A DNA stretch of 18,597 nucleotides from Candidatus Fervidifonticultor sextus (GTDB lineage Bacteria > Sysuimicrobiota > Sysuimicrobiia > Sysuimicrobiales > Humicultoraceae): NCBI GenBank assembly GCA_031459875.1, contig JAVKHQ010000042.1:1-18597 (forward strand), given 5' to 3'. The notes under the pieces are model-generated. The model worked only from the letters and a program-made list of their open reading frames with translations, did no database searches and was not told the DNA's origin. This document shows positions 1 through 18,597 of the stretch, one piece after another (the first letter of the stretch is position 1; each line of letters starts with the position of its first letter). A program made the translations under genes and the position numbers.

Positions 1-718
1 CGATCTGGCGGCCGTAGTCCATGGCGATCAGGCGGTCGCAGAGGTCCATGACGACCCCCATGTCGTGCTCGATGAGGATCATGGGCAGGCCGCGCACCTC
101 CCGCAGTTCCAGGATGTAGCGTGCGATGTCGGCCTTCTCGTCTGCGGTCATCCCGGCCATCGGCTCATCCAGGAGCAGCAGCTTCGGCTCCATGGCCAGC
201 GCCCGGCCCAGCTCGACCTTCTTCTGGATTCCATAGGCCAGTTCGGCGACGCGGTGGCTGCGGTAGGGTTCCAGCTCCAGGAAGTCGATGATCTCCTCCA
301 CCCGACGTCGGTGCTCGACCAGTTCACGCTCCGCACGCCCCCAGTAGATCCCGCTGGCCAGCAGCCCGGCGCGCATGTGGATGGTGCGACCCGAGGTGAT
401 GTTGGCCAGCACGGTCATCCCTGGATAGAGCGCGTTGTTCTGGAACGTGCGAGCGATCCCCAGCGACGCCCGCAGGTGGGGGGGCATGCGCGTGATCTCG
501 CGCCCGGCAAACGTGATCCGACCTGCCTGCGGATGGTAGAAGCCGTTGATGCAGTTCAGGACGCTGGTCTTGCCGGCTCCGTTGGGTCCGATAATCCCCA
601 GCAGCTCGCCGGGCCGCAGGGTGAAGGAGAAGCGGTCGATGGCGGTCACGCCGGTGAACCTGAGTGAGATCCCCTCCACCGCGAGAATGATATCCGCCGG
701 CGGGACGCGGCGCTCCAT
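1..718 (-). CDS. Branched-chain amino acid (Liv-type) ABC transporter ATP-binding protein, LivG-like; C-terminus runs off the window
   Basis: Not in the ORF track. Manual translation from ATG at 718: MERRVPPADIILAVEGISLRFTGVTAIDRFSF..GIIGPNGAGKT (Walker A)..GIARTFQN..LAYGIQKKVELGRALAMEPKLLLLDEPMAG (Walker B)..LIEHDMGVVMDLCDRLIAMDYGRQI. Frame is open to the window edge. Confidence 0.9.
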   Translation of the reverse strand, partial: MERRVPPADIILAVEGISLRFTGVTAIDRFSFTLRPGELLGIIGPNGAGKTSVLNCINGFYHPQAGRITFAGREITRMPPHLRASLGIARTFQNNALYPGMTVLANITSGRTIHMRAGLLASGIYWGRAERELVEHRRRVEEIIDFLELEPYRSHRVAELAYGIQKKVELGRALAMEPKLLLLDEPMAGMTADEKADIARYILELREVRGLPMILIEHDMGVVMDLCDRLIAMDYGRQI

Positions 719-806
719 TTGGGGGGAGGAATACGGCCCCCGAGCACTGGAACCCTTCAGGAGGTCGCGCAGGGGCGGTGCGGCCCCTCTGGAAGGGGAG
801 TCCGTG

Positions 807-2054: not shown

Positions 2055-2063
2055 CGGCGCGCG

Positions 2064-2092
2064 TTGACACCCCCAGGGCCCCGTGCTAGATT
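2064..2092 (+). promoter_or_regulatory. sigma70/sigmaA-type promoter for the lysA operon
   Basis: TTGACA at 2064-2069, 17-bp spacer, extended -10 TG at 2084-2085 and TAGATT at 2087-2092, inside the 50-bp gap before lysA. Confidence 0.85.
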
Positions 2093-2104
2093 GGCGATGA
2101 TTTG

Positions 2105-3445: not shown

Positions 3446-4062
3446 TCTTCGGCAGGGACCCCTCGGGCCTGCTCCTGTCCATCCCGGCGATCCTGGTCGC
3501 GCTCGCGGTCCACGAGTACGCGCACGCCTGGATGGCCGACCGTCTCGGTGATCCCACGCCGCGCCTCCAGGGCCGGCTGACGCTGAACCCGATCGTCCAC
3601 CTCGATCTGCTCGGCACCCTCCTGCTGCTCGTGGCCGGATTCGGGTGGGCGAAGCCCGTCCAGGTGAACCCTCAGTACTTTCCGAACGTGCGCGGCGGGA
3701 TGCTGGCCGTCGCCGCCGCCGGACCCCTGTCCAACGTCACCCTGGCCTTCATCGCGGGGTCGCTGATCCAGACGGGGGTGATGGAGCGCTCCACGCTGGC
3801 GGGAGGCCTGGTGCTCGTCCTGATTTACTTCAACGTCCTGCTGGCGGTGTTCAACCTGCTGCCGGTACCTCCGCTGGACGGATCACGGATCCTCTCGGCA
3901 CTGCTCCCGCCCCACCAGGCGCTGACCTATAGTCGGCTGGCGGCCTACGGGCCTCTCCTCCTCCTGCTGTTGATCGTGCTGCCCGGCCGGATCTTCTGGT
4001 CCATTCTGGGCCCGCCGATCTCCTGGTTGGTCCGCCTGGCGGCCGGACCGGGGGCGATCTAG
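3442..4062 (+). CDS. Site-2 protease family (peptidase M50) intramembrane zinc metalloprotease
   Basis: HEYAH zinc motif, LGDPTP..GRLTLNP, GFGWAKPV, AGPLSN, FNLLPVPPLDG; several hydrophobic segments; ATGA overlap with lysA stop. Confidence 0.93.
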   Translation: MIFGRDPSGLLLSIPAILVALAVHEYAHAWMADRLGDPTPRLQGRLTLNPIVHLDLLGTLLLLVAGFGWAKPVQVNPQYFPNVRGGMLAVAAAGPLSNVTLAFIAGSLIQTGVMERSTLAGGLVLVLIYFNVLLAVFNLLPVPPLDGSRILSALLPPHQALTYSRLAAYGPLLLLLLIVLPGRIFWSILGPPISWLVRLAAGPGAI

Positions 4063-4823
4063 TGGGCGGGGAGCCGCACCGGTCTGCGCTGCGGGGCCCC
4101 TCGGCCGGGTACACCGTGAAGGTGCCGGGCTTCGAGGGTCCGCTCGACCTCCTGGTCACGCTGGCCCACCAGGGGAGGATCGACCTTGGGGCGATCTCGC
4201 TCGCGGACCTGACCGCGGAGTTCCTCGACCGGACCACGCACGCCCTCGACCTGAACGAGGCCACGGAAGCGCTGTGGATGCTGGCGGCGCTGGTGGAGAT
4301 GAAGGCCAAACTCCTGTTGCCGAAGCCTCCACCGCCGGAGCCGCTGCCCGAGACCGGGGCCAGCGACTTGGCCGAGCGCCTCGAGGAAAAACTCGGCGAG
4401 TACCGCGCCTTCCAAGAGGCGGCCGACGCGCTCAAAGCGCTGGAGGAGATCCAGCAGCGGATCTTCGTGCGCGACCCGCAGGCCGACCCGGCCGACCTGC
4501 TGCTGGAGGGCCTCACGGTTGCCGACCTGTTCCAGGCCTTCCAGGCTGTGCTGACCCGTGCCCGCGAGGAACGCGCCGCCGAGGTGGCCGACGAGCCAGT
4601 CCGGGTCGCCGACCGCATGGCCGCCATCCTGGCCACCGTCAGGCGGTCGCCCGGGGGGATCGAGTTTGCGGCGCTATTCCCCGGGCGCGTGACCACCGTC
4701 TTCGTGGTGGTGACGTTCCTGGCCCTGCTGGAGTTGATCAAGGAGCGCCTGGTGCGGGTCCAGCAGGCGTCTCCGCTGGCGCCGATCCGGGTCATGGCGG
4801 CCGCGGGAGACATGGCAGGATAA
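4062..4823 (+). CDS. scpA: Segregation and condensation protein A (SMC kleisin)
   Basis: N-terminal FEGPLDLL, central MKAKLLLP, C-terminal VVTFLALLELIK; adjacent to scpB. GTG start overlaps the upstream TAG. Confidence 0.93.
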   Translation: MGGEPHRSALRGPSAGYTVKVPGFEGPLDLLVTLAHQGRIDLGAISLADLTAEFLDRTTHALDLNEATEALWMLAALVEMKAKLLLPKPPPPEPLPETGASDLAERLEEKLGEYRAFQEAADALKALEEIQQRIFVRDPQADPADLLLEGLTVADLFQAFQAVLTRAREERAAEVADEPVRVADRMAAILATVRRSPGGIEFAALFPGRVTTVFVVVTFLALLELIKERLVRVQQASPLAPIRVMAAAGDMAG

Positions 4824-4845
4824 CGCAGGGCCGTTCGCGACACGC

Positions 4846-5472
4846 GTGGCATCGCACATCAACAGCACAGCCATGGACCAGGAGCCGCCCGTTGAGATCC
4901 ACCTCTCCCAGGCCGTCCCGCCGGCCGAAGACGGCGAGCAGGCGTCGGCCCTGGCGGCAGCCGTCGAGTGCCTGCTGTTTGTGGCCGACCGTCCGATCGC
5001 CCCAGAACGCCTGGCCGAGGCCCTGGCGGCACCGGTCCCCGCCGTGCACGCAGCCCTCGAACACCTCCGTCGGCGCCTGGCAGACGGCGGCCTGATGCTC
5101 CAGGCGGTCGCCGGTGGCTATCAGCTCGCGACGCGGCCCGAGCATGCCGACTGCGTTCGCCGCTTCCTCCAGAAGGAACACGCCGAGCGGCTCACGCGGG
5201 GCGCCCTGGAGACCCTGGCGGTGATCGCATACCGACAGCCCGTCACGCGGGGCGAGATCGAGCAGATCAGGGGCGTCCGCAGCGACTGGCACATCGAACG
5301 GCTGCTGGAGCGGCAGCTGATCCGGGAGGTGGGCCGGCGCCCCACCCTGGGCCGCCCGGTCCTCTTCGGCACCACAGACCTGTTTCTCCGGTACTTCGGG
5401 CTACGCGACCTCTCCGACCTGCCACCGGTGGGCGACCGGGGCGTGGGGGCCCTGCCCGACGTAGGGCGATGA
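4846..5472 (+). CDS. scpB: Segregation and condensation protein B
   Basis: AVECLLFVA, VAGGYQLATRPE, LETLAVIAYRQPVTRGEIEQIRGV, GRPVLFGTTDLFLRYFGLRDLSDLP. Start uncertain (GTG 4846 or ATG 4873). Confidence 0.93.
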   Translation: MASHINSTAMDQEPPVEIHLSQAVPPAEDGEQASALAAAVECLLFVADRPIAPERLAEALAAPVPAVHAALEHLRRRLADGGLMLQAVAGGYQLATRPEHADCVRRFLQKEHAERLTRGALETLAVIAYRQPVTRGEIEQIRGVRSDWHIERLLERQLIREVGRRPTLGRPVLFGTTDLFLRYFGLRDLSDLPPVGDRGVGALPDVGR

Positions 5473-6545
5473 GGGTCCGGGCGCTGGCCGCGACGGTGGG
5501 GCTCGCAGCGCTGCTCGCCGCGGCGCCGGAGGCGCTGGGTTCGGTCCGCCCCGCCGCCCTCCAGCTCGGTGCGGCGGCGGCCGTGCTGGCCGACGTCCGC
5601 ACCGGACGCATCCTGTATGATCGCGACATGCACCGGCCGCTGCCGCCGGCATCCACGACGAAGATCCTGACGGCGACCCTGGTGCTGGAGCGGCTCCCCC
5701 TGGACCGGGCACTGACGGTCGGCGGCATCCCTGCCGGGATGCGGACCGGCACTACGGTGGGACTCCGGGCGGGAGAGCGCTGGACCGTCCGCGAGCTACT
5801 GGTGGCGATGCTCGTGGGCTCGGCCAACGACGCCGCGCTCGCCCTGGCCGAGGGAGTCTCAGGCAGCGTGGAGGCCTTCGTCGCCTTGATGAACGCCAGG
5901 GCCAGGCAGCTCGGTGCCCGGCGGAGCCACTTCGTCAACCCCCACGGGTTGCATGATCCGGCGCATGTCGGCACGGCCTACGATCTGATGGTGATCACCC
6001 GGCATGCCCTGCACCATCCGGCGCTGGCCGCGACGGTCCGGATGCCGGCCTTCATCCTACAGCGCGCCGACCGGCCGCCGCAGGTGTTGGCGAACACCAA
6101 CCGGCTGCTCGCGCGCTATCCCGGGGCTGACGGCGTCAAGACCGGCTGGACCGCAGCCGCCGGGCAGACCCTGGTGGCCTCGGCGACACGGGAGGGATGG
6201 CAGTTGCTGGCCGTGGTGCTGCGCAGCGGCGACATGTACCGCGACGCGGCCCACCTCCTGGACTACGGGTTTGCGACCTTCGCGCCCGTCCGGGTCGCCG
6301 GCCGGGGTCAGGCCCTGGCCACCATCATCGTCGGACCGCGCAGGGAGCCTCTGCCCGCCGTGGTCCCCGCTGAGGTCGTCGCGGTGGTGCGGCGGGGCGC
6401 CGCGGTGTCGCCCCGGGTGACGCTGCGGGGGGACCTGCGCCCACCGATCGCGGCGGGCGCGCCGGTGGGCGAGGTCCGGTTCCTGGAGGGCCGGGACGTG
6501 GTGGCGCACTCCGTGCTGGTGGCGGCCCGGTCCGTGCACCGGTAG
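5469..6545 (+). CDS. D-alanyl-D-alanine carboxypeptidase (peptidase S11, DacB/DacF-like)
   Basis: C-terminal 358 aa of ORF 4968..6545; ATG 5469 overlaps scpB TGA. Signal-peptide-like N-terminus, PASTTK (SxxK), SAND (SxN), NPHGL, KTG, and PBP5-type C-terminal domain (PPIAAGAPVG). Confidence 0.92.
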   Translation: MRVRALAATVGLAALLAAAPEALGSVRPAALQLGAAAAVLADVRTGRILYDRDMHRPLPPASTTKILTATLVLERLPLDRALTVGGIPAGMRTGTTVGLRAGERWTVRELLVAMLVGSANDAALALAEGVSGSVEAFVALMNARARQLGARRSHFVNPHGLHDPAHVGTAYDLMVITRHALHHPALAATVRMPAFILQRADRPPQVLANTNRLLARYPGADGVKTGWTAAAGQTLVASATREGWQLLAVVLRSGDMYRDAAHLLDYGFATFAPVRVAGRGQALATIIVGPRREPLPAVVPAEVVAVVRRGAAVSPRVTLRGDLRPPIAAGAPVGEVRFLEGRDVVAHSVLVAARSVHR

Positions 6546-8027: not shown

Positions 8028-9287
8028 GTGGGGCAGGGCGTGCGCGTCGAGATCGCCGGCCTGGTCTGCCGCCTGGGGGGGATCGCGGCCCTCGACGGCA
8101 TCTCGGTCCACATTCCGCCCGGCCGCCTCTTCGGGGTGGTGGGGCCCAACGGCGCCGGGAAGACGACGCTGTTGCGCGCGATCGCCGGGGCCGTGGGTCC
8201 CCAGGCGGGCGCCGTCCTGGTGGAGGGTCGCGCCCCGCACGCGACGCCTGCCTCCGACCTGGCCCGCATCATGGCGGTCCTCCCGCAGCACCCCGTCGCG
8301 CCGGCCGGCGTCACGGTCCGGGAGGCCGTGGGGTGGGGGAGGGCGCCGCGCCTCGGCCGCCTGGCCAGACCGCGGCCGGACGACCTGCGCGCCATCGACG
8401 AAGCGCTGGCCCAGACCGGGACGCTGGCCTTAGCCGGCCGGGCCGTCGACACGCTCAGCGGTGGCGAGCGCCAGCGGGTGCTGATCGCCCGGGCCCTGGC
8501 ACAGTCCCCCCGTCTGCTCCTGCTGGATGAGCCCACCGTGCACCTGGACATCGGCCATCAGGTGGAGATCATGGACCTGCTGCGCCATCTCGCCGGGCGC
8601 GGCCTCACCGTGGTGGCCGCCCTCCACGACCTGAACCTGGCGGCGACCTACTGCGACGGCGTGGCGCTGCTGGCGCGAGGGCGCCTTGTGGCGTGCGGGC
8701 CGCCGGCTGATGTGCTCAGGGCGGACCTCATCCGTCACGCGTACGGCCCCGCCGTGGCGGTCCGCACCAATCCGGCGACCGGGAGGCCCTACGTGGCGGT
8801 CGCCGGCCGGGCGCGGGCGGGCGGGACGGGCCCGCGGATCCACGTGATCTGCGGCGGCGGCACCGGCGCGGAGGCCCTGGCCCGCCTGGTGGAGTCGGGG
8901 TACCGGGTGAGCGCGGGCGTCCTGCACGTGATGGACTCCGACGACGAGGCGGCCGCCGCGCTGGGCGTCGAGGTGGTCGAGGAGGCCCCCTTCTCGCCGG
9001 TCGGCGACGAAGCGGTGGCGGCGGCGACCGCGCTCGCCCGGGCGTCGGATGTCGTCGTCGTCGCCCCAGTCCCGGTCGGGCCTGGAAACCTCCGGAACTT
9101 CGAGGTGGCCGCCTCCGCGCTGGCGGCGGGGATCCCGGTGGTCCTGGTCGAAGGGACCGCACAGCGGGACTTCACCGGGGGTGCGGGGGCGGCGGCGGCC
9201 GAGCGGCTGCGGGCCGCCGGCGCGCTGGTGGTGCCCGACGTGCACGCAGCCGTCGAATTGGTCCGGCGGGTCGCTCCGGTAGCTTAG
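8028..9287 (+). CDS. btuD: Corrinoid/iron-chelate ABC ATPase with ~150-aa C-terminal extension (long BtuD type)
   Basis: GPNGAGKT, LSGGERQR, LLLLDEPT, LHDLNLA; C-terminal domain begins RIHVICGGGTG at about 8835. Confidence 0.75.
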   Translation: MGQGVRVEIAGLVCRLGGIAALDGISVHIPPGRLFGVVGPNGAGKTTLLRAIAGAVGPQAGAVLVEGRAPHATPASDLARIMAVLPQHPVAPAGVTVREAVGWGRAPRLGRLARPRPDDLRAIDEALAQTGTLALAGRAVDTLSGGERQRVLIARALAQSPRLLLLDEPTVHLDIGHQVEIMDLLRHLAGRGLTVVAALHDLNLAATYCDGVALLARGRLVACGPPADVLRADLIRHAYGPAVAVRTNPATGRPYVAVAGRARAGGTGPRIHVICGGGTGAEALARLVESGYRVSAGVLHVMDSDDEAAAALGVEVVEEAPFSPVGDEAVAAATALARASDVVVVAPVPVGPGNLRNFEVAASALAAGIPVVLVEGTAQRDFTGGAGAAAAERLRAAGALVVPDVHAAVELVRRVAPVA

Positions 9288-9301
9288 GGGGTGCGGCTCC
9301 G

Positions 9302-9988
9302 GTGGATCGGCAGGGGCTCGTGGTGACCATCGACGGCCCCACGGCGGCCGGGAAGTCCACGGTGGCCCGCGGCGTGGCCCGCCGACTGGGACTCCGGTAC
9401 GTGGACACCGGCGCCATGTATCGCGCCGTGGCGCTGGCCGCGATCCGGCGGGGCATCGACCCGACCGATGGGGGCGCACTGGGCGCGCTGGCCGAGTCGG
9501 TGACGGTCAGGTTCGAGTCCGGGCCGTCGGGAGACCGCGTCTGCCTCGACGGCGAGGACGTCACCGCCGCGATCCGCGCCCCCGAGGTGAGCGCCGCGGC
9601 CTCCGTGGTGAGCACGGTGCCCCGGGTGCGGGCTGCCATGGTGGCGCAGCAGCGCGCGCTGGCTGCATCTGGCGGAGTCGTGATGGAAGGCCGCGACATC
9701 GGCACCGTGGTCCTTCCCGACGCCGAGGTCAAGGTGTTCCTCGACGCCACCCTGGAGACCAGGGCCAAGCGGCGCCACGACGAACTGCGCGCCCGCGGCG
9801 TCGAGATCGACATCGAGGAGATCAAGCGCCAGGAGGCGGAGCGGGACCGCCGTGACGAGACCCGGGCCCTGGCGCCGCTGCGGCCAGCCGCCGACGCCGT
9901 CATCCTCGACACGACCGCCATGACGGTCGACGAGGTGATTGACGCGGTCGTGCGGCTCGTCCGCCAGCGCACCGGTGGGCACCGATGA
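9302..9988 (+). CDS. cmk: Cytidylate kinase
   Basis: IDGPTAAGKST, YVDTGAMYRA, VMEGRDIGTVVLPDA, RDRRD..R..APL. Confidence 0.95.
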   Translation: MDRQGLVVTIDGPTAAGKSTVARGVARRLGLRYVDTGAMYRAVALAAIRRGIDPTDGGALGALAESVTVRFESGPSGDRVCLDGEDVTAAIRAPEVSAAASVVSTVPRVRAAMVAQQRALAASGGVVMEGRDIGTVVLPDAEVKVFLDATLETRAKRRHDELRARGVEIDIEEIKRQEAERDRRDETRALAPLRPAADAVILDTTAMTVDEVIDAVVRLVRQRTGGHR

Positions 9989-10671
9989 CCGCACGGTTTG
10001 GGATCTGGTACCTGATCCTGCAGATCCTCTACACGGCCTGGACGCGCCTGCAGTTCCGGCTGCGCGTCGAGGGCCGCGAGCACGTGCCGCCGGAGGGCGG
10101 GGTGCTGGCGGTCTGCAACCACAACAGCGCGATCGACCCCTGGATCGCCGGCGTGGCGTTCGGCCGGCCGGCCCGCTACATGGCCAAAGAAGAACTCATG
10201 CGGGTGCCGGTCATCGGCTGGCTGGTTGCCGCCATGGGCGCGTTTCCGGTCCGGCGCGGCGAAGCCGACCGGCGGTCGCTGCGGATCGCCCTCGACGCGC
10301 TGGCCCGGGGCCAGATCGTGCTGATGTTCCCCGAGGGCACGCGCAGCCCCGACGGCCGGCTGCGTACCGGCGAGCCGGGCGCGGCCCTGCTGGCGTTGCG
10401 CTCCGGCGCCCCGGTGCTCCCCACGGCGATCATCGGGAGCCACCGGGTCATGCCGCGGGGCGCCTGGTTCCCCCGCAGTCACCCGGTGACGGTGCGGTTC
10501 GGGCCGGTGATCCCCGTCCCTCGGCGCGAGGGCAAGATCCACCGGGCCGAACTGGACGAGTGGACGCGGCGGTTCATGGCCGCCATCGCGGCGCTGCTGC
10601 CGCCGGAACAGCAGCCGGTTGAGACGGATGGGCCCCCGGTCCGGGCGCCGCGCGCGGAAGGGTCAGGGTGA
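9985..10671 (+). CDS. plsC: 1-acyl-sn-glycerol-3-phosphate acyltransferase
   Basis: NHNSAID (NHx4D), MAKEEL, GAFPVRRG, FPEGTRS; ATGA overlap with cmk; cmk-plsC adjacency is common. Confidence 0.9.
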   Translation: MTARFGIWYLILQILYTAWTRLQFRLRVEGREHVPPEGGVLAVCNHNSAIDPWIAGVAFGRPARYMAKEELMRVPVIGWLVAAMGAFPVRRGEADRRSLRIALDALARGQIVLMFPEGTRSPDGRLRTGEPGAALLALRSGAPVLPTAIIGSHRVMPRGAWFPRSHPVTVRFGPVIPVPRREGKIHRAELDEWTRRFMAAIAALLPPEQQPVETDGPPVRAPRAEGSG

Positions 10672-10768
10672 AAGTCTGCGGGCGAAGGCTCGGCGGACAC
10701 GGAACCCAAACAAGATCTCCTGGCAGACCGGTCCGAGCGGCAGAGCATGACGTGTGCGGCCACCCGCG

Positions 10769-11275
10769 TCAGGGACAGGTCGGCGAGACTCGAAGGTCTT
10801 CTTCCCAACGCAGAACCGTCGCCTTCAGCGGCGGTCCGTAGGGTGGCGCGGTGCCCTGATAGGCGATCTCGACTTCGGCGCGGATGACCCGGGTGTGCAC
10901 CGGCGTGCCGTTCCTCCGGATCTCCCCTACGGACAGGATGCACCAGCGGCGTGCGGGTTCCTCAGCGGTGCACACCGAGGGCGGGCTCAGGCAGGTGCGG
11001 GTGGTGGAGTACCAGAACCGGTCGTCACCGGTATCGGGGTATTCGGTCGGGGAGATGCCGGGCGCGTCCTTGTCCCCCTTGAGGAGGTAGATCTGGTGTT
11101 CCAGGCCGGCCTGGGCCAGGTAGAGCGCCTTCGCGTCCTGGAGCATCAGCTGGCCCATGTCCGTCTCGGCGGTCAGGAGCTGGGCAATCCCGCCGGTCAC
11201 CAGCGCCAGGATCAGGACGACCACCAGCGCCAGGACGAGCGCGGTGCCCGCCTCGTCGGCGACGCAGCGTCGCAT
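10769..11275 (-). CDS. Minor pilin, PilX/GspK/ComGG position
   Basis: From ATG 11275: MRRCVADEAG|TALVLALVVVLILAL, a class III signal lacking Glu5, followed by PilX-N-like ALYLAQAGLE. Last gene of the pilin cluster. Confidence 0.8.
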   Translation of the reverse strand: MRRCVADEAGTALVLALVVVLILALVTGGIAQLLTAETDMGQLMLQDAKALYLAQAGLEHQIYLLKGDKDAPGISPTEYPDTGDDRFWYSTTRTCLSPPSVCTAEEPARRWCILSVGEIRRNGTPVHTRVIRAEVEIAYQGTAPPYGPPLKATVLRWEEDLRVSPTCP

Positions 11276-11294
11276 CAGCCGCGGGCGAGCCGGA

Positions 11295-12878
11295 TCAGGG
11301 CACCTGACGGGAGGCACGGGAGGTGACGGCAAAGGTCAAGACTTCTCCAGTGGGGTCCGCGAGCGTGAGGCTGACCTCCACGGACCTGACCTCCGAGACC
11401 GGGGCACACCCGGTGATGAGGCCCCCGCTGGCATTGAAGCACCGGATGCTCATGGATTGGAACGGGCCCGCCAGCGGCTGAAACGCGCCTAGGGACGCTG
11501 GCGTCTCCTCGGCGGCCAGGAGCGCAGAGGGCTCAGGATCCGCGACCCGGGCCCGCACGATGATGTAGCGGTGCCGATGGTCGATCGGCCGGCGCTGGAG
11601 ACCGTTGACACGCCCGTAGTAGTCTCCCGACAGGATCGGCGCCGGATCGGTGACGGCCACCGCCCATCCCAGAGGCTCCGGCTGGCCCACGGCCCAGGTC
11701 TTCCCGCGCAGCACCGCGCCCACCAGCGAGAATCTCCCGTAGTAGTTGGTCCCTGGGGCGACGGTCAGTGGGGCCTCCGCCAACTGGGTTCCGGCTCCAG
11801 ATCCGCCCCACCCCGCCACCCGGTAGATGCGCAGCCGAGTGTTCGTGGCCTGGCCGGGGTTGAGGCGATAGCCGGCCCCTGCGCTGCTCCGCCGGGCGCT
11901 GATGCCCACGATGTGCCGTTGGGTGGCGGCGCCGCCGCCCGAGTCGCTGCGAAACCTCCAGAAGACCTCGACGTTCGCGTGGCCGGGCAGCCACTTGCTG
12001 AACTCCCGGTAGCACAACCCGGCCTGAGCCCCTCCTGTGTTGGCAAAGCGGAAGGAGGTCCCGACCGGGTTGGTGTCCGCAGCAATCGAGTCGGTGCCAT
12101 TGCACGGGTTCGTGCCCGAATCACGCCGAACCCATCCCGTATCCGCCGTTCCCTCTTCGTAGTCCAGGAAGACGTTGTCGGCGTTCGCCGGTGGAGGACC
12201 GGCACCGAGATCGCCATAGTGCAGGAAGTAGTGCACGCTGGTGCCGCCCGAGGGAATCGGGGCCTGCAGCCTGAACCACACGCGGGTCGTCGTGGTGTTC
12301 CAGGTCGACTGGATGTCCAGCACCCGATCGAGTTCCACCCACTCCGTCCCCGTCCAGTAGCGAATCCGCACGTCGTTGCCGTTGGCGAGGCTCTTTCCCG
12401 ACTGGACGAGGGCCTGGTGATCGAAGGTGACCGGGACCGAGTAGCCGGCAGGGACGCCGTTGGGCGCGACGATGACGATCCGCCGCCTGTAGAGGAATCC
12501 GGTCTCCGAGCGCTGGCGGTACTCCAGGGTTCCGGTGGCGCTGTTGAGTCGATACTCGACGTCCAGCATCTGTCCGGTCCCGTCGCCGCGCGCGGTGACG
12601 AACCGCATGAGGGGGAGGGAGGGATCGACTATGAGGAATCCCTGCGCCGCGCGCAGGTCGCGGACCATCGTGTCGGCCGCCCGCCGCGCGTTCTGGAGCA
12701 TGTCGGTGTGGCGATCGACCCGGTGCCAGGACTGGCCGGCGATGGACAGGAGGGGGACGAGCGCGGCCAGGACCAGACCAAGGATCGCCAGGGTGGCCAG
12801 CACCTCGGTGAGCGTCGTGCCGGCCTCACGCAGGAGGAACGAAGGCGTCCTAGGGACGGGACGTGACCTTGGTGTCAT
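11295..12878 (-). CDS. Large (527 aa) minor pilin, PilW/GspJ/ComGF position, with internal DUF2341-like and lectin-like beta domains
   Basis: ATG 12878; LREAG|TTLTEVLATLAILGLV class III signal with Glu5; NARRAADTMVRDLRAA helix typical of PilW/GspJ; internal YRRRIVI..NGNDVRI..RVWFR..YFLHYGD segment. Confidence 0.8.
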   Translation of the reverse strand: MTPRSRPVPRTPSFLLREAGTTLTEVLATLAILGLVLAALVPLLSIAGQSWHRVDRHTDMLQNARRAADTMVRDLRAAQGFLIVDPSLPLMRFVTARGDGTGQMLDVEYRLNSATGTLEYRQRSETGFLYRRRIVIVAPNGVPAGYSVPVTFDHQALVQSGKSLANGNDVRIRYWTGTEWVELDRVLDIQSTWNTTTTRVWFRLQAPIPSGGTSVHYFLHYGDLGAGPPPANADNVFLDYEEGTADTGWVRRDSGTNPCNGTDSIAADTNPVGTSFRFANTGGAQAGLCYREFSKWLPGHANVEVFWRFRSDSGGGAATQRHIVGISARRSSAGAGYRLNPGQATNTRLRIYRVAGWGGSGAGTQLAEAPLTVAPGTNYYGRFSLVGAVLRGKTWAVGQPEPLGWAVAVTDPAPILSGDYYGRVNGLQRRPIDHRHRYIIVRARVADPEPSALLAAEETPASLGAFQPLAGPFQSMSIRCFNASGGLITGCAPVSEVRSVEVSLTLADPTGEVLTFAVTSRASRQVP

Positions 12879-13278
12879 AGCGCACCTGTTCTTCCCCCTC
12901 GTCGCAGGCGCCGCTGGCATCGCGGTCCTGGCAGGCGGTGACCCTTATCGTCTTGAGGACGCCAACGCCGAAGGTGTTGCTCGATGCCTCGGTGGCGATG
13001 GTCCACTCGACCCGGCAACCAGGCAGGTCCGCAGGGTCTGCGGGAGCGTCGCACGATTCAGCACCGGACGACACGCTGTGGATGTCATCCCGCAGGCGGC
13101 TGATCAGTTCCTCGGCCTTGCGCGTCGCCTCCGCGGCGAGCCGCAGCTGGACATCGGAGACCTGCACCGGGCCCAGCGCGGCCGGCAGGACCTGCAGCAG
13201 CGGGACCAGGGCGACGGCGATGATGGCCGCCGCCACCAGCAGCTCCACGAGCGACACCCCGGCCTCTGGGTGCCTCAT
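12850..13278 (-). CDS. Minor pilin, PilV/GspI/ComGE position
   Basis: MRHPEAG|VSLVELLVAAAIIAVAL with Glu5; ATRKAEEL and LKTIRVT patterns of PilV/GspI-like pilins; four Cys; ATGA overlap with upstream gene. Confidence 0.8.
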   Translation of the reverse strand: MRHPEAGVSLVELLVAAAIIAVALVPLLQVLPAALGPVQVSDVQLRLAAEATRKAEELISRLRDDIHSVSSGAESCDAPADPADLPGCRVEWTIATEASSNTFGVGVLKTIRVTACQDRDASGACDEGEEQVRYDTKVTSRP

Positions 13279-13715
13279 GGCAGCGTCACCACCACCCGAC
13301 CGGTCGTCGCGTACACCTGGACCGTCGCCGTCGCTCCCCCGGCCACCAGGGTCACCGTGCCGCCTGCGGAGGGGCTGCCGTCCGGCCGAAACGAGAACTG
13401 CTGGGGCCCGGTGACGGTGACCCCGGCCGGCAGGGGTTTGGGAAAGTCCGGTTCAGGGCTCCCAAGTTCCCGCCTCACGGTGTAACTCTGGTACGGTGCG
13501 ACGGCCGGCGAAAACTCCACCACGTAGGTGGCTCTTCGGGCGATGGCCAGCCGCTGCGCCAGGCGCAGGTCGCCGGCCAACTCCCGGGCAGGCGCGCTGA
13601 CCTGCAGCGATTCGGGCACGCTCAGGCGCGGCGCGGCCACGACCATGAGAATAGCCAGCAGCGCCGCCAGGACCAGCGCCTCGATGAAGCTGAACCCTCG
13701 ATCCAGTCCCCGCAT
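13275..13715 (-). CDS. Minor pilin, FimT/FimU/GspH/ComGD position
   Basis: From ATG 13715: MRGLDRG|FSFIEALVLAALLAIL..P; ELAGDLRLAQRLAI, FSFRPDGSP..GGTVTL, TTGRV are GspH/FimT-like. Confidence 0.82.
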   Translation of the reverse strand: MRGLDRGFSFIEALVLAALLAILMVVAAPRLSVPESLQVSAPARELAGDLRLAQRLAIARRATYVVEFSPAVAPYQSYTVRRELGSPEPDFPKPLPAGVTVTGPQQFSFRPDGSPSAGGTVTLVAGGATATVQVYATTGRVVVTLP

Positions 13716-13768
13716 GCCTGGGCCGGAGGCCCACCGATCTGCAAGCCGGGCTTCCGAAGCGGGGTGAC

Positions 13769-14152
13769 CTAGTGCCCCGCCCCGGTATCGTGGTTCACGC
13801 CGCCCGCGCTCATCTGCACCCGGCACAGGCTCGCGCTGTACGTGGTCACGTACGGCGTCGCGTTCCCGGTCCTCGGGTCGACCGGCCGGCCGTCCGGGAA
13901 GTACGTCGTGTTGTCCAAAAACGCCAAGAATGCGGCCTCAGTGGCCGGACACGAGCCGTTGTTCCGGTACTGGTAGAGGGCCAGCGCCGAGTTGATGGCC
14001 CGCACGTTGGCCATGTCCACCGCGCGCCGCGCGTCGGCCTCCGCCCCAAAGTAGTTGGGCAGGGCGATGGCGATGAGCACCCCGAGGATCAGGACCACCG
14101 CCAGGACCTCGACGAATGTGAACCCTCCTTCACCTGCGCGCTGACGAACCAT
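13769..14152 (-). CDS. Probable major type IV pilin/pseudopilin (GspG/ComGC-like, 117-aa mature)
   Basis: MVRQRAGEGG|FTFVEVLAVVLILGVLIAIALPNY; ANVRAINSALALY; two Cys; strongest SD in the cluster (GGGAGGTGA); first pilin after pilC. Confidence 0.85.
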   Translation of the reverse strand: MVRQRAGEGGFTFVEVLAVVLILGVLIAIALPNYFGAEADARRAVDMANVRAINSALALYQYRNNGSCPATEAAFLAFLDNTTYFPDGRPVDPRTGNATPYVTTYSASLCRVQMSAGGVNHDTGAGH

Positions 14153-14188
14153 CCGCGTTCACCTCCCTCGTGCTGTAATGTCCTCTTC

Positions 14189-15406
14189 CTACCGCACCAG
14201 CAGTCGTGGCAGTCCGAAGATCGGCAGATACAGCGCCAGCAGGATGAGCGCAACGACGCCTCCCAGGGCGAGGGTCAGCAGGGGCTCGGCCAGCGTCATG
14301 AGCCGCCTGATGGCGAAGTCGGTCTCCCGCTCCAGCAGGTCCGAGGCGCGCTGGAGGAGGGCGTCCAGACGTCCTGCCTCTTCGCCCATCGCCACCATGC
14401 GGTGGACCATGGGCGGGAACAGCGTCACCGACCGCATCGCCTCGCTGAGGCGCCGGCCCCGATTGATCCCGTCCCTGAGGTGCCCGATGGCGGCGCGCAT
14501 CTGGGGATCGGCGATGGCCTCGCCGGTGACGTCCAGGGCCGAGAGGACCGGGACCCCGCTGGCCTGCATGGCCCCGAACGTCCACACGAAGCGGGTGACC
14601 TGGATGGTCCTGGCGACCGACCCCACCTGCGGGATGCGATAGAGCAGGCGCCCGGCTGCCTCGCGCAGGCGGGTCCGCACCCGCGGCTGGGTCAGCGCCC
14701 AGGCGCCGGCCGCTGCGGCCGCCAGCAGGAGCGGCCAGAACCGGCGGACCAGGTGGCTGATCGCGACCAGCGCGACGGTGGGCGGGGGAAGCGGGACGCC
14801 CGCCGTCCGGTAGACGCGGTCGAAGACGGGCACGACGAAGGTCACGAAGATCCCCGCCACCACCGCCGCCAGCGCCGCGACGAAGGTCGGGTAGACGAGC
14901 ATCATCCGGATCTTCTGCTGGAGGGCGAGTTCGCGTTCCAGGTAGTCGCTCAGGCGCGCCAGCGACTGATCCAGCACGCCTGCGACTTCTCCGACGCGCA
15001 CGACGCCCAGGTACAGCGGCGAGAAGAGCGCGGGGTGGCGGGCCAGCCCGGCCGACAGGCTGTGGCCGGCTTCGATACTGGCCTGCAGGTCGGCAATGGC
15101 CTCCTGCAGCTGGCGGCTCTCGGTCTGTTCGCGCAGGACCTCGAGCCCCCTCAGCAGCGGGACCCCCGACGCCAGGAGGCCGGCCAGGTGGAAGGTGAAC
15201 GCCGCCACGTCGTCCAGGGTCGGGCGGCGCTGCAGCCACGGGAACGGTCCCCGGCGGGCCTTCGGGCGCAGCGAGGTGATGTAGAGCCCCCGCTCGCGCA
15301 GGCGGGCCCGGGCGCGGGTTTCGTCGTCGGCCTCCAGCACGCCGCGGACCGGGAGGCCGATGCCGTCCCGGCCGGTGTACTCAAAGGCAGGGACGCCGGA
15401 GCCCAC
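14189..15406 (-). CDS. pilC: Type IV pilus/T2SS inner-membrane platform protein (PilC/GspF family)
   Basis: FEYTGRD..G.LEA, LLASGVPL, GEVAGVLD, YP, SGVPV, FPPMVHRMVAMGEEAGRLD, LAEP..LYLPIF: two T2SSF domains with TM segments. Confidence 0.93.
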   Translation of the reverse strand: MGSGVPAFEYTGRDGIGLPVRGVLEADDETRARARLRERGLYITSLRPKARRGPFPWLQRRPTLDDVAAFTFHLAGLLASGVPLLRGLEVLREQTESRQLQEAIADLQASIEAGHSLSAGLARHPALFSPLYLGVVRVGEVAGVLDQSLARLSDYLERELALQQKIRMMLVYPTFVAALAAVVAGIFVTFVVPVFDRVYRTAGVPLPPPTVALVAISHLVRRFWPLLLAAAAAGAWALTQPRVRTRLREAAGRLLYRIPQVGSVARTIQVTRFVWTFGAMQASGVPVLSALDVTGEAIADPQMRAAIGHLRDGINRGRRLSEAMRSVTLFPPMVHRMVAMGEEAGRLDALLQRASDLLERETDFAIRRLMTLAEPLLTLALGGVVALILLALYLPIFGLPRLLVR

Positions 15407-15407
15407 G

Positions 15408-17315
15408 TCAATCCGCCCCCCCCAGGACGACGCGGCGCACCTCTTCCACGCTGGTGATCCCTTCCAGGATCTTGGCGATGCCGGCCTGGCGCATGGTGCG
15501 CATGCCCGCCCGCTCGGCCGCGTCGCGGATGGTGCTGGCAGGCCGGCGCTGGAGGATGAGCTCCCGCGTCTGGTCGGTCACCGGCATGATCTCGAAGACG
15601 CCGGTGCGGCCGCGGTAGCCGATGTCGGCGCACTCCGCGCATCCTGTCGGCTTCCAGAGGGTGACCGGAAAGGCCGCGGCCAGATTCAACACGCGCAGCT
15701 CGTCGGGCGTAGCCGAATAGGAACGCCGGCACGTCGGACACAGCGTCCGCACCAGCCGCTGGCCCACGGCGGCCAGCAGCGTGGAGGTGATCAGGTACGG
15801 CTCGATGCCCATGTCGATGAGCCGGACCACCGCGCCCGACGCGTCGTTGGTGTGCAGCGTCGAGAGCACCAGGTGGCCGGTGAGCGCTGCCTGGACCGCG
15901 ATCTGGGCGGTTTCGGCATCGCGGACTTCACCCACCATGATCACATCGGGGTCCTGCCGAATGATGGCGCGCAGGCCGGTGGCGAACGACACCGCCATCT
16001 TGGACCGGACGGCAATCTGGGTGATACCCTCCAGGTGGTACTCGACCGGGTCTTCGATCGTCATGATGTTCCGCGACCGCTCGTTGAGGCGGCTGAGGCA
16101 CCCGTAGAGGGTGGTGGTCTTCCCCGAGCCGGTGGGCCCGGTCACCAGGATCATCCCGTAGGGCCTGGCCAGCAGCCGGTCGAGCAGCGCCTCCTGGTCG
16201 GGGAGCAGGCCCAGCCGCTCCAGGCCCAGCAGGACCCGGCTCTTGTCCAGGACCCGGACGGTGATCCGCTCGCCGAAACTGGCGCCCACGGTGGCGATGC
16301 GCAGGTCGTGCTCGCGGCCGCCCACTTCGTAGAGGAGCCGGCCGTCCTGGGGTCGGATGCGTTCGGCGATGTCCAGCCCGGCCAGGGCCTTGATGCGGGA
16401 GGTGACGGCGGCGGCCACAGCCCGGGACAGGCGGGCCTTGTCGTACAGGATGCCGTCGATGCGGTAGCGGACGGCGGTCCCGTCGGCCTGGGGTTCGATG
16501 TGGATGTCGGTGGCCCCGTCGCGGAGGGCCCCCTGGATGAGAGAGTCCACCAGGCGCACGACTGGAGGGTCGGAGGGCGATTCGCTGGCCGCGACGGCGG
16601 TGACCTCGGGCAGGGCGTCTGCGACCTCACCGGTCTCTTCCAGGCGCTCGGTCACGGCGCGGGTGACGTCGAATCGCGTGGACAGCAGCCACTCGAAGTC
16701 CCGCTCGGTCGTAAAGAAGGGGCGCACGCGGGCGCGGACGAGGGCCGAGATTCGGTCGATGGCCACCACATCGCTGGGGTCGGTCATCGCCACGTGGACC
16801 TCGCGGCCCACGCGGGCGAAGGGGACCGCCCTGAGTTCGGTGATGACCGACAGCGGGACGAGGCCCAGCACCTCCTCGTCGATAGAGGTCGCGGCCAGGT
16901 TCACGTAGGGCGCGCCGCGCTGGGCACCCAGCGTCTCGCCCAGCGCCTGCTTGGTGATGAAGCCGCGCTTGATCAGGATCTGGCCGAGGCGTTCGCCGGT
17001 CTTGGCCTGATCCGCCAGTGCTTCTTCCAACTGCTGGGGCGTCAGCAGTTCGGTCTCCAGCAGCATCTGGCCCAGCCGCTTCTGCGACGCGCTGGGCACG
17101 TAGAACGGCTCGGAGGCGTTGACGGCCCTGCGCACGACCACCCCGTCGGCCACCAGCGTGGCCAGGGCCGCCTCGACTGCCTCGAGCGGAATGCCAAGCT
17201 GCTCGGCGATCGCCACCGCGGTGGGCCGTTTCTGGCCGTGGACCTGGACAAAAGCCTGGACACGCCGCCGGACCTGACCGTCGGGCGCATCGGCGAAGGT
17301 AGGCCTAGCGGGCAT
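15408..17315 (-). CDS. pilB: Type IV pilus assembly ATPase (PilB/GspE family) with tandem MshEN motif and extra N-terminal wHTH-like segment
   Basis: Likely start ATG 17315 (GGGGAG upstream; overlaps HTH gene stop). ATDIHIEP, RYRIDG, PQDGR, GPTGSGKTT, TIEDPVE, RQDPDVIMVGE, TGHLVLSTLHTN, CPTC..CAEC zinc site, GYRGRTG. Confidence 0.93.
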   Translation of the reverse strand: MPARPTFADAPDGQVRRRVQAFVQVHGQKRPTAVAIAEQLGIPLEAVEAALATLVADGVVVRRAVNASEPFYVPSASQKRLGQMLLETELLTPQQLEEALADQAKTGERLGQILIKRGFITKQALGETLGAQRGAPYVNLAATSIDEEVLGLVPLSVITELRAVPFARVGREVHVAMTDPSDVVAIDRISALVRARVRPFFTTERDFEWLLSTRFDVTRAVTERLEETGEVADALPEVTAVAASESPSDPPVVRLVDSLIQGALRDGATDIHIEPQADGTAVRYRIDGILYDKARLSRAVAAAVTSRIKALAGLDIAERIRPQDGRLLYEVGGREHDLRIATVGASFGERITVRVLDKSRVLLGLERLGLLPDQEALLDRLLARPYGMILVTGPTGSGKTTTLYGCLSRLNERSRNIMTIEDPVEYHLEGITQIAVRSKMAVSFATGLRAIIRQDPDVIMVGEVRDAETAQIAVQAALTGHLVLSTLHTNDASGAVVRLIDMGIEPYLITSTLLAAVGQRLVRTLCPTCRRSYSATPDELRVLNLAAAFPVTLWKPTGCAECADIGYRGRTGVFEIMPVTDQTRELILQRRPASTIRDAAERAGMRTMRQAGIAKILEGITSVEEVRRVVLGGAD

Positions 17316-17553
17316 GCCGGTCTCCCCGCCGCCTGTGCCCGCCGGCATCCCGGCCCGCATGGGGACGCTCAGAGTTGGCGTTGATCGCATGGTCGGTCAG
17401 CCACCGGTCGATCTGGTCCTTCCTGAACCGCCAGGCGCGGCCCACCCGCAAGGCCGGCAGGTCGCCCCGCTGGATCATCCGGTAGACGGTCATCTCGTGC
17501 ACCCGGAGGTAGCGGGCCAGTTCCTGCGCGGTCAGAATCGCCGCTCGCCGCAC
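17305..17553 (-). CDS. Small excisionase-like/MerR-type HTH DNA-binding protein (HTH_17, BldC/Xis-like)
   Basis: ILTAQELARYLRVHEMTVYRMIQRGDLPALRVGRAWRFRKDQIDRWL is a typical HTH_17 pattern; GGAGGGGG upstream of GTG. Confidence 0.85.
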   Translation of the reverse strand: MRRAAILTAQELARYLRVHEMTVYRMIQRGDLPALRVGRAWRFRKDQIDRWLTDHAINANSERPHAGRDAGGHRRRGDRHAR

Positions 17554-17584
17554 CGTCGTCCAGCCCCCTCCCCCGCGCCCATTC

Positions 17585-17678
17585 CGAAGCGTATCTTCCC
17601 GGGAACCGACTGTTCCTAGACGTGGCCGACGCCAGTTGACTTCAACAAGCCGCAGCCGACCGGACAGATCGCGGACAG
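17585..17678. promoter_or_regulatory. Repeat- and palindrome-rich putative control region of the HTH-pil operon
   Basis: GAA-N7-TTC units at 17585-17599 and 17602-17616 around TTCCCGGGAA; GTTGA-CT-TCAAC at 17635-17646; CGGACAG twice at 17661 and 17672. Function inferred from position only. Confidence 0.45.
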
Positions 17679-17703
17679 GCAGGGTGTCGGGCGGAGGCGG
17701 GAA

Positions 17704-18582
17704 CTACGGGGCGGGGGGCGCCAGCACCAGGAGGGCCTTCGGGTGCACGCAGAACCGCGCGGGCAGGGTGCCGACCGGTTCGCCGTCGGCCTGGATGAAC
17801 AGCGGCGTGGGGCCGCTCACCACGACCTCCCTCGCCTCGACCAGGCGGACTTTCGGATGGCCGAGGTGGCGGCCGGAGAACACCTTGGGGAGGACGAAGA
17901 GGGTCTCCAGGCGCCCCAGCGGGCCGGCAATGAGGGTGTGGAGCAGTCCGTCGTCGGGCCGGGCCCCTGGAGCCAGATGCATCCCTCCGGCGTTCCAGGC
18001 CGTGTTGGCGGCGGCGACGAGGAAGATCCGTTCTCGGCTGCTAGATCCGTCCAGGGAGAGTTCGACTTCTACCGGCCGGTACGTCCCCAGCGTTTTCAGG
18101 ATGCCGATGGCGTACATGACCGTGCCGTTCATCAGTTTGGGCCAGGCGTTGACCTGCCGGGCCACCTCGCCGTCGAATCCGACGCCGGCGATGGTCAGGA
18201 AATAGTGACCGTTGACTTCTCCCACGTCGATCGGGCGCGGGCGCGCGGTGACCAGGATCCTGGCGGCTGCGACGGGATCGCGGGGGATGCCCAGCGCCCG
18301 GGCGAAGTCGTTGGCGGTGCCCACTGGCAGGAGGGCCATGATCCCGTGCCGGCGGGCGCCGAGCAGGCCGTTGGCCACTTCATTGGCGGTCCCATCGCCG
18401 CCGACGGCCAGCACCACGTCCTCGGGCGAGGCCGCGGTCAGCTGGCGCGCATGGCCCCGGCGCTCGGAGTGACTCTCACGGATCTCCCAGCCGGCCTCCG
18501 TCAGGATGGGCCGCGCCTGTTTCCACTGCTGCATTCCCCGTCGGCCGCCGGCGACGGGATTCACGACGGCGCGCACACGCAT
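17704..18582 (-). CDS. Diacylglycerol kinase-family lipid kinase (YegS/DagK/BmrU-like)
   Basis: VVNPVAGG, VGGDGTANEVANG, LPVGTANDFARALG, IDVGEVNG, GVGFDG, GGM, DDGLL, QADGE. Start ATG 18582 (GTG 18585 in frame). Confidence 0.9.
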   Translation of the reverse strand: MRVRAVVNPVAGGRRGMQQWKQARPILTEAGWEIRESHSERRGHARQLTAASPEDVVLAVGGDGTANEVANGLLGARRHGIMALLPVGTANDFARALGIPRDPVAAARILVTARPRPIDVGEVNGHYFLTIAGVGFDGEVARQVNAWPKLMNGTVMYAIGILKTLGTYRPVEVELSLDGSSSRERIFLVAAANTAWNAGGMHLAPGARPDDGLLHTLIAGPLGRLETLFVLPKVFSGRHLGHPKVRLVEAREVVVSGPTPLFIQADGEPVGTLPARFCVHPKALLVLAPPAP

Positions 18583-18597
18583 CACCCAGAACTACGG

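Follow-up and report, generated by a model that had tools for sequence, protein, structure and literature searches.

What could a winged helix be doing at the very front of a pilus motor, directly ahead of the part that is expected to sense cyclic di-GMP (c-di-GMP)? This question is raised by a PilB/GspE-type pilus assembly ATPase of Candidatus Fervidifonticultor sextus, which is encoded on contig JAVKHQ010000042.1 of assembly GCA_031459875.1 within a stretch of 18,597 nucleotides that was analysed as a whole and is called the window in the following. The gene lies at 15408..17315 on the minus strand (stop codon included) and encodes 635 amino acids (aa), 79 of which stand before the MshEN motif, whose first residue is R80. 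An earlier inspection of the letters of this DNA—referred to as the sequence-only reading—had proposed a winged-helix-like domain ahead of MshEN, and had considered that it links the motor to nucleic acid or to a partner such as the upstream HTH protein. The architecture of winged helix-turn-helix (wHTH), MshEN and ATPase turns out to be real and conserved. It is a lineage-restricted variant of a known motor, for whose additional domain we infer, at a probability of roughly 55%, a role as a protein-contact module—regulatory or docking in kind—on a type IV filament assembly ATPase, rather than DNA reading by its helix 3.

Residue numbers refer throughout to the 635-aa form starting at ATG 17315, and the 660-aa frame is the one read from the first ATG. 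A single open frame spans 15408 to 17390 on the minus strand. The start at 17315, the one used by the sequence-only reading, is likely on three counts: a Shine-Dalgarno-like GGAG can be read from the sequence at 17322..17325 (minus strand), 6 nucleotides upstream of the ATG; the ATG overlaps the 3′ end of the upstream HTH_17 gene (TAG 17307-17305); and a separate 635-aa gene call (P0002) in the protein collection begins at this same codon. Any start earlier than 17315 would include the winged-helix domain as well, and the later in-frame GTGs and ATG fall within its predicted helices and strands or within motif I, with M84—inside motif I—being the sole later in-frame ATG.

From its N-terminus on, the protein consists of the winged-helix domain (residues 11-74, 17094..17285, as delineated by structure prediction, VIA-align, Foldseek, sub-threshold Pfam wHTH matches and substitution rates), a linker SASQK (residues 75-79, 17079..17093) that joins the wing to the first Arg of MshEN motif I, the MshEN_N c-di-GMP motif region (residues 80-132, 16920..17078, from NCBIfam NF053729, a regular expression, four predicted helices and a Foldseek match to MshE 5htl), the MshEN_C or N1 subdomain (residues 134-216, 16668..16916, Pfam PF05157 at 159-241 of the 660-aa frame), and the N2 and C-terminal ATPase domain (residues 248-628, 15432..16574, Pfam PF00437 at 273-653 of the 660-aa frame), all on the minus strand. 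The 60-residue peptide quoted by the sequence-only reading matches residues 15-74 letter for letter (40-99 of the 660-aa frame, 17094-17273 on the minus strand); within the coordinates given for it, 17094..17276, only the end at 17276 was off, covering one residue too many. Pfam T2SSE (PF00437) reaches E 6.8e-130 and 433.4 bits against a cut-off of 24.9 over profile positions 4-370 of 370, and Pfam MshEN (PF05157), which falls on the alpha/beta subdomain, E 2.8e-17 and 62.9 bits against 23.1. A Walker A box and a tetracysteine of two CxxC pairs are typical of GspE/PilB; both are present in the ATPase translation, as GPTGSGKT and as CPTC and CAEC. The NCBIfam equivalogs stay below their cut-offs (PilB TIGR02538 555.8 versus 675.65, GspE TIGR02533 577.7 versus 630.25, ComGA 245.7 versus 300), and the protein is therefore named a PilB/GspE-type ATPase with no subtype.

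The fold of the N-terminal domain was assessed by two AlphaFold2 (AF2) models, one of residues 1-250 with a 19-sequence alignment and one of residues 8-80 alone. The predicted local distance difference test (pLDDT) amounts to 81.5 for the longer model and to a mean of 85.5 for the shorter one, which has a predicted template modelling score (pTM) of 0.74. Both models contain helix 1 (H1) at 11-29, a short bridge, H2 at 33-40, H3 at 44-56 and a beta hairpin of strands 60-63 and 71-74—the H1-b-H2-H3-b-wing-b topology of a winged helix-turn-helix. In the numbering of the small model, DSSP places helices at 4-22, 26-33 and 37-49, the bridge at 25 and the strands at 53-56 and 64-67. In a VIA-align run against 48,161 chains, all 50 of the 50 matches listed are winged-helix proteins (Z 9.6-11.7); these include DNA binders such as MarR, IclR, Rrf2, ArsR and Z-alpha, and protein binders such as ESCRT-II (3cuq_B, Z 10.6), RPC62 and TFIIE, which score like the DNA binders. 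With the small model, Foldseek gave no match at E <= 1e-3; its top row is Z-alpha of PKZ (TM-score 0.88, rmsd 1.2 over 65 columns), and the other best rows are PerR, MepR, ZitR and the winged helix of RPC39.

Sequence profiles point to the same fold class from a greater distance. A profile of the domain finds Z-alpha of ADAR1 (E 5e-5), the archaeal regulator 2d1h (1e-4), eS25 and EutK in the PDB. The N-terminus of the whole protein has sub-threshold Pfam wHTH matches to GntR (18.1 bits) and HTH_24 (17.1 bits), and the window's domain misses all of the respective gathering cut-offs (GntR 22.4/27, MarR_2 20.1/27, TrmB 19.5/25.6, HTH_24 18.0/21.9, EutK_C 13.8/27.5). In a per-member Pfam scan of 19 members, the counts are 12 for EutK_C, 11 for DUF4423, 9 for TrmB, and 7 each for MarR_2 and HTH_20. 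The best score of residues 1-80 in the ESM Atlas—0.80, to small HTH_24, IclR and MarR clusters—lies below a meaningful level. For the remainder of the 1-250 model, Foldseek returns MshE 5htl (E 2.3e-10) and GSPII domains of Thermus PilF. The structure prediction and structural search of the N-terminus that the sequence-only reading had suggested thus return a winged helix, and with a pLDDT of 85.5 and 50 out of 50 listed VIA-align neighbours confirm the winged-helix-like domain ahead of MshEN: in the models, these residues—approximately the first 76—fold as a true winged helix.

Does the cell make this domain, and does selection hold on to it? Frames cut from related genomes provided the orthologue set, and 19 of them were aligned. 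Among 41 related genomes, the best PilB match begins no later than residue 20 in 18, apart from the genome of the window itself. Identity to the window's domain ranges from 21 to 95% across the 19 orthologues; L51, L54 and G58 are invariant and R18 and A37 nearly so. The three invariant residues occupy core positions, and the surface of the domain is poorly conserved. The ratio of non-synonymous to synonymous substitution rates (dN/dS, Nei-Gojobori) of the domain lies at 0.14-0.42 in all ten pairs, some of which have a dS near 1. The corresponding values of the MshEN part are 0.07-0.22, and in nine of the ten pairs the winged-helix domain has the higher ratio. Judged by its codons, the winged-helix domain is translated and under purifying selection, and the conservation that the sequence-only reading wanted checked is borne out by alignment of 19 orthologues and by these ratios. 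It could still be argued that the region lies outside the mature protein, with the true start near MshEN and an upstream frame that is open by chance, as the DNA is 71% GC, has many long spurious frames and offers in-frame GTG codons within the region. This is extremely improbable in view of amino acids that are conserved despite synonymous turnover, a confidently predicted fold, a well-spaced ribosome-binding site, a sole later ATG that would start the protein inside motif I, and clean in-frame deletions of exactly this module in two related genomes, G008 and G045.

These deletions are part of a wider pattern of gain and loss. A profile scan of a phylum sample of 94 genomes yields strong matches (E <= 4e-18) at 26 places in 25 genomes, the next E-value being 8.7e-7. 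The 25 carrier genomes comprise 19 of family f1—the window's genome included—and six in one genus of family f4; in total, at least 11 genera of these two families have kept the domain. Of the 26 places, 24 are within open frames of 547-778 aa and two at contig ends. The window's genome has one copy of the domain; it also contains three or more further PilB-like genes, of which at least two start near their MshEN motif. One carrier, G085, has two copies of the wHTH-PilB (G085:C152, G085:C196), and two of the frames in G085 and G081 (G081:C178) are open for 778 aa, so that a further N-terminal extension is possible there.

Beyond this sample, a profile search of 5.8 billion proteins gave 27 matches, 25 of them PilB-type (22 of 630-653 aa and three shorter pieces) and the remaining two Lhr-type helicases (E 4e-4 and 5e-3). 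Among proteins of 39-132 aa, a profile search for standalone copies returned only matches of 104 and 131 aa, the second on an 883-base contig, and both are taken for fragments by length and contig; apart from the weak likeness to Lhr helicases, these searches found neither a standalone form nor another protein family with the domain. A search of a collection of 185,579 species with a 250-residue alignment, seeded with two MshEN peptide patterns, confirmed 115 loci, of which 80 were retained. For 18 of these 80, the match begins no later than residue 32. By record title, the 18 are Ca. Fervidifonticultor (2), Ca. Geohabitans (1), Armatimonadota/Armatimonadetes, CSP1-3 among them (4), Bacillati bacterium ANGP1 (2) and "bacterium" (9). 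The remaining 62 loci come from many phyla and match from residue 57 or later. With residues 26-104 of the 660-aa frame as the query, a word-indexed search retrieved the protein itself and one relative only. For phmmer, a single sequence is too weak as a query, and profile searches did better: residues 1-79 against 1.84 billion representatives gave 11 matches at E <= 1e-3 and none at <= 1e-10, with a 121-aa fragment on top and Ala-rich stretches of unrelated proteins below it.

The literature gives a similar picture. Full-text searches, judged from their listings, brought up nothing relevant on a winged helix fused to PilB or MshEN; the supplement of PMC5013675 is free of the terms "HTH", "winged" and "DNA-binding"; and the main text of the phylum's description paper makes no mention of pili, secretion systems or c-di-GMP. 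Fusions of MshEN described in the consulted sections of PMC5013675 are those to ATPase, glycosyltransferase, REC, HD-GYP, CheA, CheX, cyclase and kinase. The impression that this architecture is not among the characterised motors hence agrees with the searches, which found none in print and none outside one lineage. The accompanying premise—that MshEN-bearing PilBs normally begin at or near the motif—was overstated, since Thermus PilF has several N-terminal GSPII domains and MshEN occurs in many fusions.

In a maximum-likelihood phylogeny built from the C-terminal 545 residues of 31 frames, the 19 carriers fall into a single clade (22 rows, support 99/98). Its three further rows are the non-carriers G008 and G039 and a sequence truncated at a contig end. 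The domain is missing from the six outgroup orthologues and the three paralogues in the tree. One gain, followed by at least three losses (G008, G045 and G039), would be the simplest reading of this distribution. Relative to its congener G018, G008 displays a clean in-frame deletion of the domain; G045 has lost helices 1-3 and retains only its initial residues and a wing remnant, as seen in the sequence only; and G047 keeps the whole domain. Within a single genus, the domain is thus intact in L011 (G018) and L035 (G047), partly deleted in L036 (G045:C34) and fully deleted in frame in L010 (G008:C4). Two of the losses fall in one genus, where the profile matches two of eight genomes.

Such losses would suit a weakly selected structural appendage, which contributes solubility or spacing, has no signalling role of its own and decays in some lineages. 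The dN/dS above that of MshEN in nine of ten pairs and the poorly conserved surface would fit as well. Against this speak the retention of the domain in at least 11 genera of two families, a dN/dS well under 1 in every pair—also where dS is near 1—and the conserved acidity of helix 3, described next. We consider an appendage of this kind quite unlikely.

Helix 3 is the sequence-recognition element in DNA-binding winged helices. In the present domain, it bears a net charge of -1 to -4 in all 19 orthologues and, in the window's protein, no basic residue at all, so that the caveat attached to the sequence-only reading is borne out well beyond the single protein. An acidic helix 3 without basic residues favours a protein-contact role. 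The whole domain ranges from +2 to -6; in 11 of 19 orthologues it is net negative with an isoelectric point (pI) below 6.5, and one subclade lies at -2 to -6. Judged from these charges, DNA reading by helix 3 is unlikely, and the proposed link to nucleic acid is weakened.

Two class assignments were tried and rejected. In a HMMER alignment, ADAR1 PKKEINRVLYSL stands opposite the consensus pleeVeAeLetL, which is PLEAVEAALATL in the window; what we take to be the Z-DNA contact residues of Z-alpha helix 3—Lys-Lys, Asn, Arg and Tyr—face L/V, E, E, A and E/A, and membership in Z-alpha was rejected on the grounds that these contacts are not kept. The class of DNA-binding wHTH transcription factors was dismissed for the acidity of helix 3 in 19 of 19 orthologues and the domain charge of +2 to -6.

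Several observations nevertheless weigh against a module for protein contacts. The window's own copy has a net charge of +1 and a pI of 9.0. Basic residues are conserved outside helix 3, namely R17 (16/19) and R18 (18/19) in H1, R62 (14/19) in the first wing strand, and those of the basic linker, and could form a non-canonical nucleic-acid surface. Many of the best matches in sequence and structure are DNA binders (MarR, IclR, Rrf2, ArsR, Z-alpha). Finally, the domain is dispensable in some backgrounds, as G008 has lost it cleanly, G045 has lost part of it, and G039 lacks it.

The first three of these points equally nourish the view that the winged helix binds nucleic acid through the Arg pair of H1, the Arg of the wing and the basic linker, be it at a competence-like pseudopilus, with incoming or substrate DNA, or at its own promoter, as a moonlighting regulator. 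The fold class is mostly DNA-binding, with Z-alpha, MarR, IclR and Rrf2 as best matches, and the operon resembles comG/gsp cassettes, with weak matches to ComGC, ComGD and ComGA that are all below cut-off. On the other side, helix 3 is acidic throughout the orthologues, the domain carries a negative net charge (down to -6) in 11 of 19, the presumed contact positions of Z-alpha are replaced by hydrophobic and acidic residues as listed above, and no dimerisation element lies beside the domain. On balance, binding of nucleic acid in this manner appears unlikely, albeit less so than an appendage without a role.

The protein-contact reading, which we prefer, would then run as follows. The ATPase of one clade gained an N-terminal winged helix, separated from the first Arg of the MshEN motif by a linker of five residues. 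This domain would work via protein contacts, as a regulatory or docking module beside the MshEN sensor. Contact might be made in cis, with the basic face that MshEN_N presents at its N-terminus, or in trans, with a partner protein. In both cases, the timing of hexamer assembly or of engagement with the platform would be tuned.

For a contact in trans, the protein encoded directly upstream is one candidate, as already put forward by the sequence-only reading. It is an excisionase-type HTH_17 protein of 82 aa (17305..17553, minus strand; Pfam HTH_17 E 1.6e-18, NCBIfam "excise" 65.7 bits versus 28.8). The winged helix might be its docking site, sequestering or delivering the regulator and thereby coupling the state of the motor to transcription of the operon. 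The two genes overlap (ATG 17315, TAG 17307-17305), and the acidic helix 3 could, so the idea, mimic DNA towards a basic HTH. By tblastn, HTH_17 is found upstream of PilB in 12 of 31 loci: 11 of the 19 wHTH loci, and G008, which retains HTH_17 and has lost the winged helix. At the other eight wHTH-PilB loci (L014-L021), it was not found by tblastn with this query, and pilB is there divergent from rpsL-rpsG-fusA or beside unrelated genes. HTH_17 and wHTH-PilB are therefore not obligate partners. Furthermore, the most acidic domains occur in the subclade without an HTH_17 neighbour. A complex prediction of PilB 1-220 with the HTH_17 protein (66 residues) scored 0.00 in both runs, which is uninformative either way. 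Present beside 11 of 19 wHTH-PilB genes, not seen at the other eight and kept beside one domain-less PilB, the upstream protein is weakened as a partner, and we regard docking of this regulator as very unlikely. The subclade L014-L019 has its wHTH-pilB divergent, next to rpsL-rpsG-fusA and a small L7Ae-like gene, with no HTH_17. All in all, the sequence-only reading is partly supported: its architecture and its protein-contact caveat stand, whereas its nucleic-acid link, its HTH partner and its premise on where such proteins start do not fare well.

A contact in cis would involve MshEN_N, whose c-di-GMP motif departs from the published pattern. The motif was examined by regular expression against the strict and relaxed patterns published for Vibrio cholerae MshE, as contained in the consulted sections of PMC5013675. 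By comparison with these, motif I comprises residues 80-103 and motif II residues 109-132, with a 5-residue spacer in between. The NCBIfam c-di-GMP motif model NF053729 scores 60.3 bits at residues 80-132 (cut-off 38, positions 1-53 of 53). Motif II fits the strict pattern; motif I misses both the strict and the relaxed one at a single position, Glu89 in place of the second Gly—a feature absent from the sequence-only reading. This second Gly is described as conserved and required for the helix-helix turn, and changes of MshE Arg9 as altering binding less than fivefold, in the same sections of PMC5013675, where mutants of the Gly itself do not appear. The part consulted of PMC12943098 lists K5, R7, K8, R9 and R38 as the positive ligand face of V. 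cholerae MshEN_N. The counterpart of the V. cholerae residues just before RLG is the linker in the window's protein, and positions 75-80 (linker and R80) have a net charge of +1 to +3 in 19/19 orthologues. In the AF2 model, the wing ends at 74 and MshEN helix 1 begins at 81, without a dip of the pLDDT between them.

Across the orthologues, motif I fails the relaxed pattern in 16 of 20 carriers of the winged helix versus none of nine non-carriers. Half of the 16 failing carriers have Glu for the second Gly, and the other eight have Leu, Met or Phe for the first Arg. In all three domain-loss species, motif I is canonical. This link between winged helix and motif I has no statistical weight, because only three independent contrasts are available and the motif differs in one of them. 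Orthologues of family f2 (L024-L028), which have no winged helix, possess a canonical motif I and a motif II that fails the relaxed pattern, starting with RLA or RMA and not RLG; half-site decay of the c-di-GMP motif is therefore common in this orthologue group. Tentatively, the winged helix might be an intramolecular switch, whose acidic helix 3 covers the basic motif-I face like a lid or occupies it as a pseudo-ligand in carriers that have replaced or re-tuned half of the c-di-GMP site, which would provide a second, c-di-GMP-independent input. The 5-residue linker, the motif I failures in carriers and the occurrence of losses only alongside a canonical motif I are hints in this direction; such a lid is nevertheless unlikely.

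The surroundings of the gene are best explained as a compact type IV filament operon, consisting of the HTH_17 regulator, the ATPase, a PilC/GspF platform, and one major and four minor pilin-like genes, all on the minus strand. The PilC/GspF platform protein (405 aa, 14189..15406) matches Pfam T2SSF at E 1.6e-55 in two stretches and NCBIfam GspF with 338 bits, below cut-off. The major pilin-like protein (127 aa, 13769..14152) has an N-terminal G/FTFVE motif, a Pfam N_methyl match, and weak GspG and ComGC matches below cut-off. It is followed by a GspH/ComGD-like pilin-like protein (13275-13826; Pfam GspH and a pilin-type N-terminus), a pilin-like protein with Pfam N_methyl (12850-13278), and two pilin-like proteins with a pilin-type hydrophobic N-terminus, one of 541 aa (11295-12920; a weak NCBIfam match of 22 bits to "Verru_Chthon cassette protein C") and one of 187 aa (10769-11332). 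The last two have no Pfam family and, going by their N-termini, may be large minor pilins or tip proteins of the filament. The GC content at third codon positions (GC3) of the four minor pilin-like genes (10769..13826) is 0.78-0.86.

None of the window's frames was assigned by the Pfam scans to PilM/N/O, a secretin, PilT or a prepilin peptidase. A promoter and terminator scan of 10500-18000 gave no promoter-like and three terminator-like sites, the latter versus 2.2 expected, and the inverted repeats in the intergenic 17540-17720 are only G/C runs. Upstream of the HTH_17 gene lies a diacylglycerol-kinase/YegS-like lipid kinase (17704-18585, minus strand), and the order kinase, HTH_17, PilB is conserved in at least two related genomes (L003, L010). 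The plus strand carries housekeeping genes at 546-6545 and 8028-10671, namely an AMP-binding enzyme, a diaminopimelate/ornithine-type decarboxylase, an M50 peptidase, ScpA, ScpB, a D-Ala-D-Ala carboxypeptidase, an ABC ATPase and an acyltransferase; between 6057 and 8028, neither GC3 nor Pfam indicates a clear gene.

PilB/GspE motors are regulated via their N-terminal domains—by c-di-GMP, PilZ-FimX or GspL—and the route by which such inputs reach the hexamer is a question of its own. According to the consulted sections of PMC5013675, c-di-GMP has hardly any effect on ATP hydrolysis in vitro, which would seem to call for an external factor. The motor described here has a second, unrelated small domain that is set directly against a c-di-GMP half-site and has been cleanly deleted in sister species. 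Its matched motor pairs, with and without the domain, are natural material for asking what the N-terminus does. Should the lid exist, this would be a motor with a second input independent of c-di-GMP. The scope is narrow, as one uncultured lineage is concerned, and no new mechanism is claimed from these results.

Among known winged helices, the Z-alpha domains of ADAR1, PKZ and viral E3L-like proteins are the nearest small ones (profile E 5e-5 to 7e-4, TM-score 0.88, Z 11.7), and differ in helix 3, whose presumed Z-DNA contacts are hydrophobic or acidic residues in the window's domain. FtsK gamma is a winged helix on a hexameric motor ATPase, to which it lends a head for reading or for activating a partner; it is C-terminal and basic and binds KOPS DNA and XerD. 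The window's domain shares with it the position on a hexameric motor, yet is N-terminal and has an acidic helix 3; FtsK gamma is not among the Foldseek and VIA-align matches listed, where no search was aimed at it. The only non-PilB protein with sequence likeness found is the Lhr-type helicase. Residues 1005-1047 of one such protein, P0039 (1470 aa), align by hhalign at a probability of 91%, with 44% identity over 43 columns and an acidic helix 3. The winged-helix module of P0039 lies in the C-terminal half, at the end of the AlkZ-like region, and long open frames (nine of 1403-1469 aa; range 1003-2366) give weak matches in 13 or more of the phylum's genomes. The Lhr module may be the source of the PilB domain, although the match is short, reaching from H1 to the start of the wing, stands in another context and does not establish common descent.

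Among known motors, V. cholerae MshE (5htl) has the same order of MshEN_N motif, MshEN_C and T2SSE (Foldseek E 2.3e-10), and motif II of the window's protein is canonical by the pattern in the consulted sections of PMC5013675. MshE starts eight residues before RLG, whereas the window's protein begins with a 76-residue winged helix and has Glu at the second Gly of motif I. Thermus thermophilus PilF (6ejf, 8pdk, 9g1w) is likewise a PilB-type motor with extra N-terminal regulatory domains, and is matched by the MshEN part at E 4e-10 to 3e-8; its extras are repeats of the MshEN fold, in contrast to the winged helix of the window's protein. In Xanthomonas citri, finally, the N-domain of PilB (7lkm, 7lko; E 4e-8 to 1e-7) docks PilZ through the MshEN-like domain itself and not through an added winged helix—and yet a motor N-terminus that serves as a docking site is the kind of role that we propose here.

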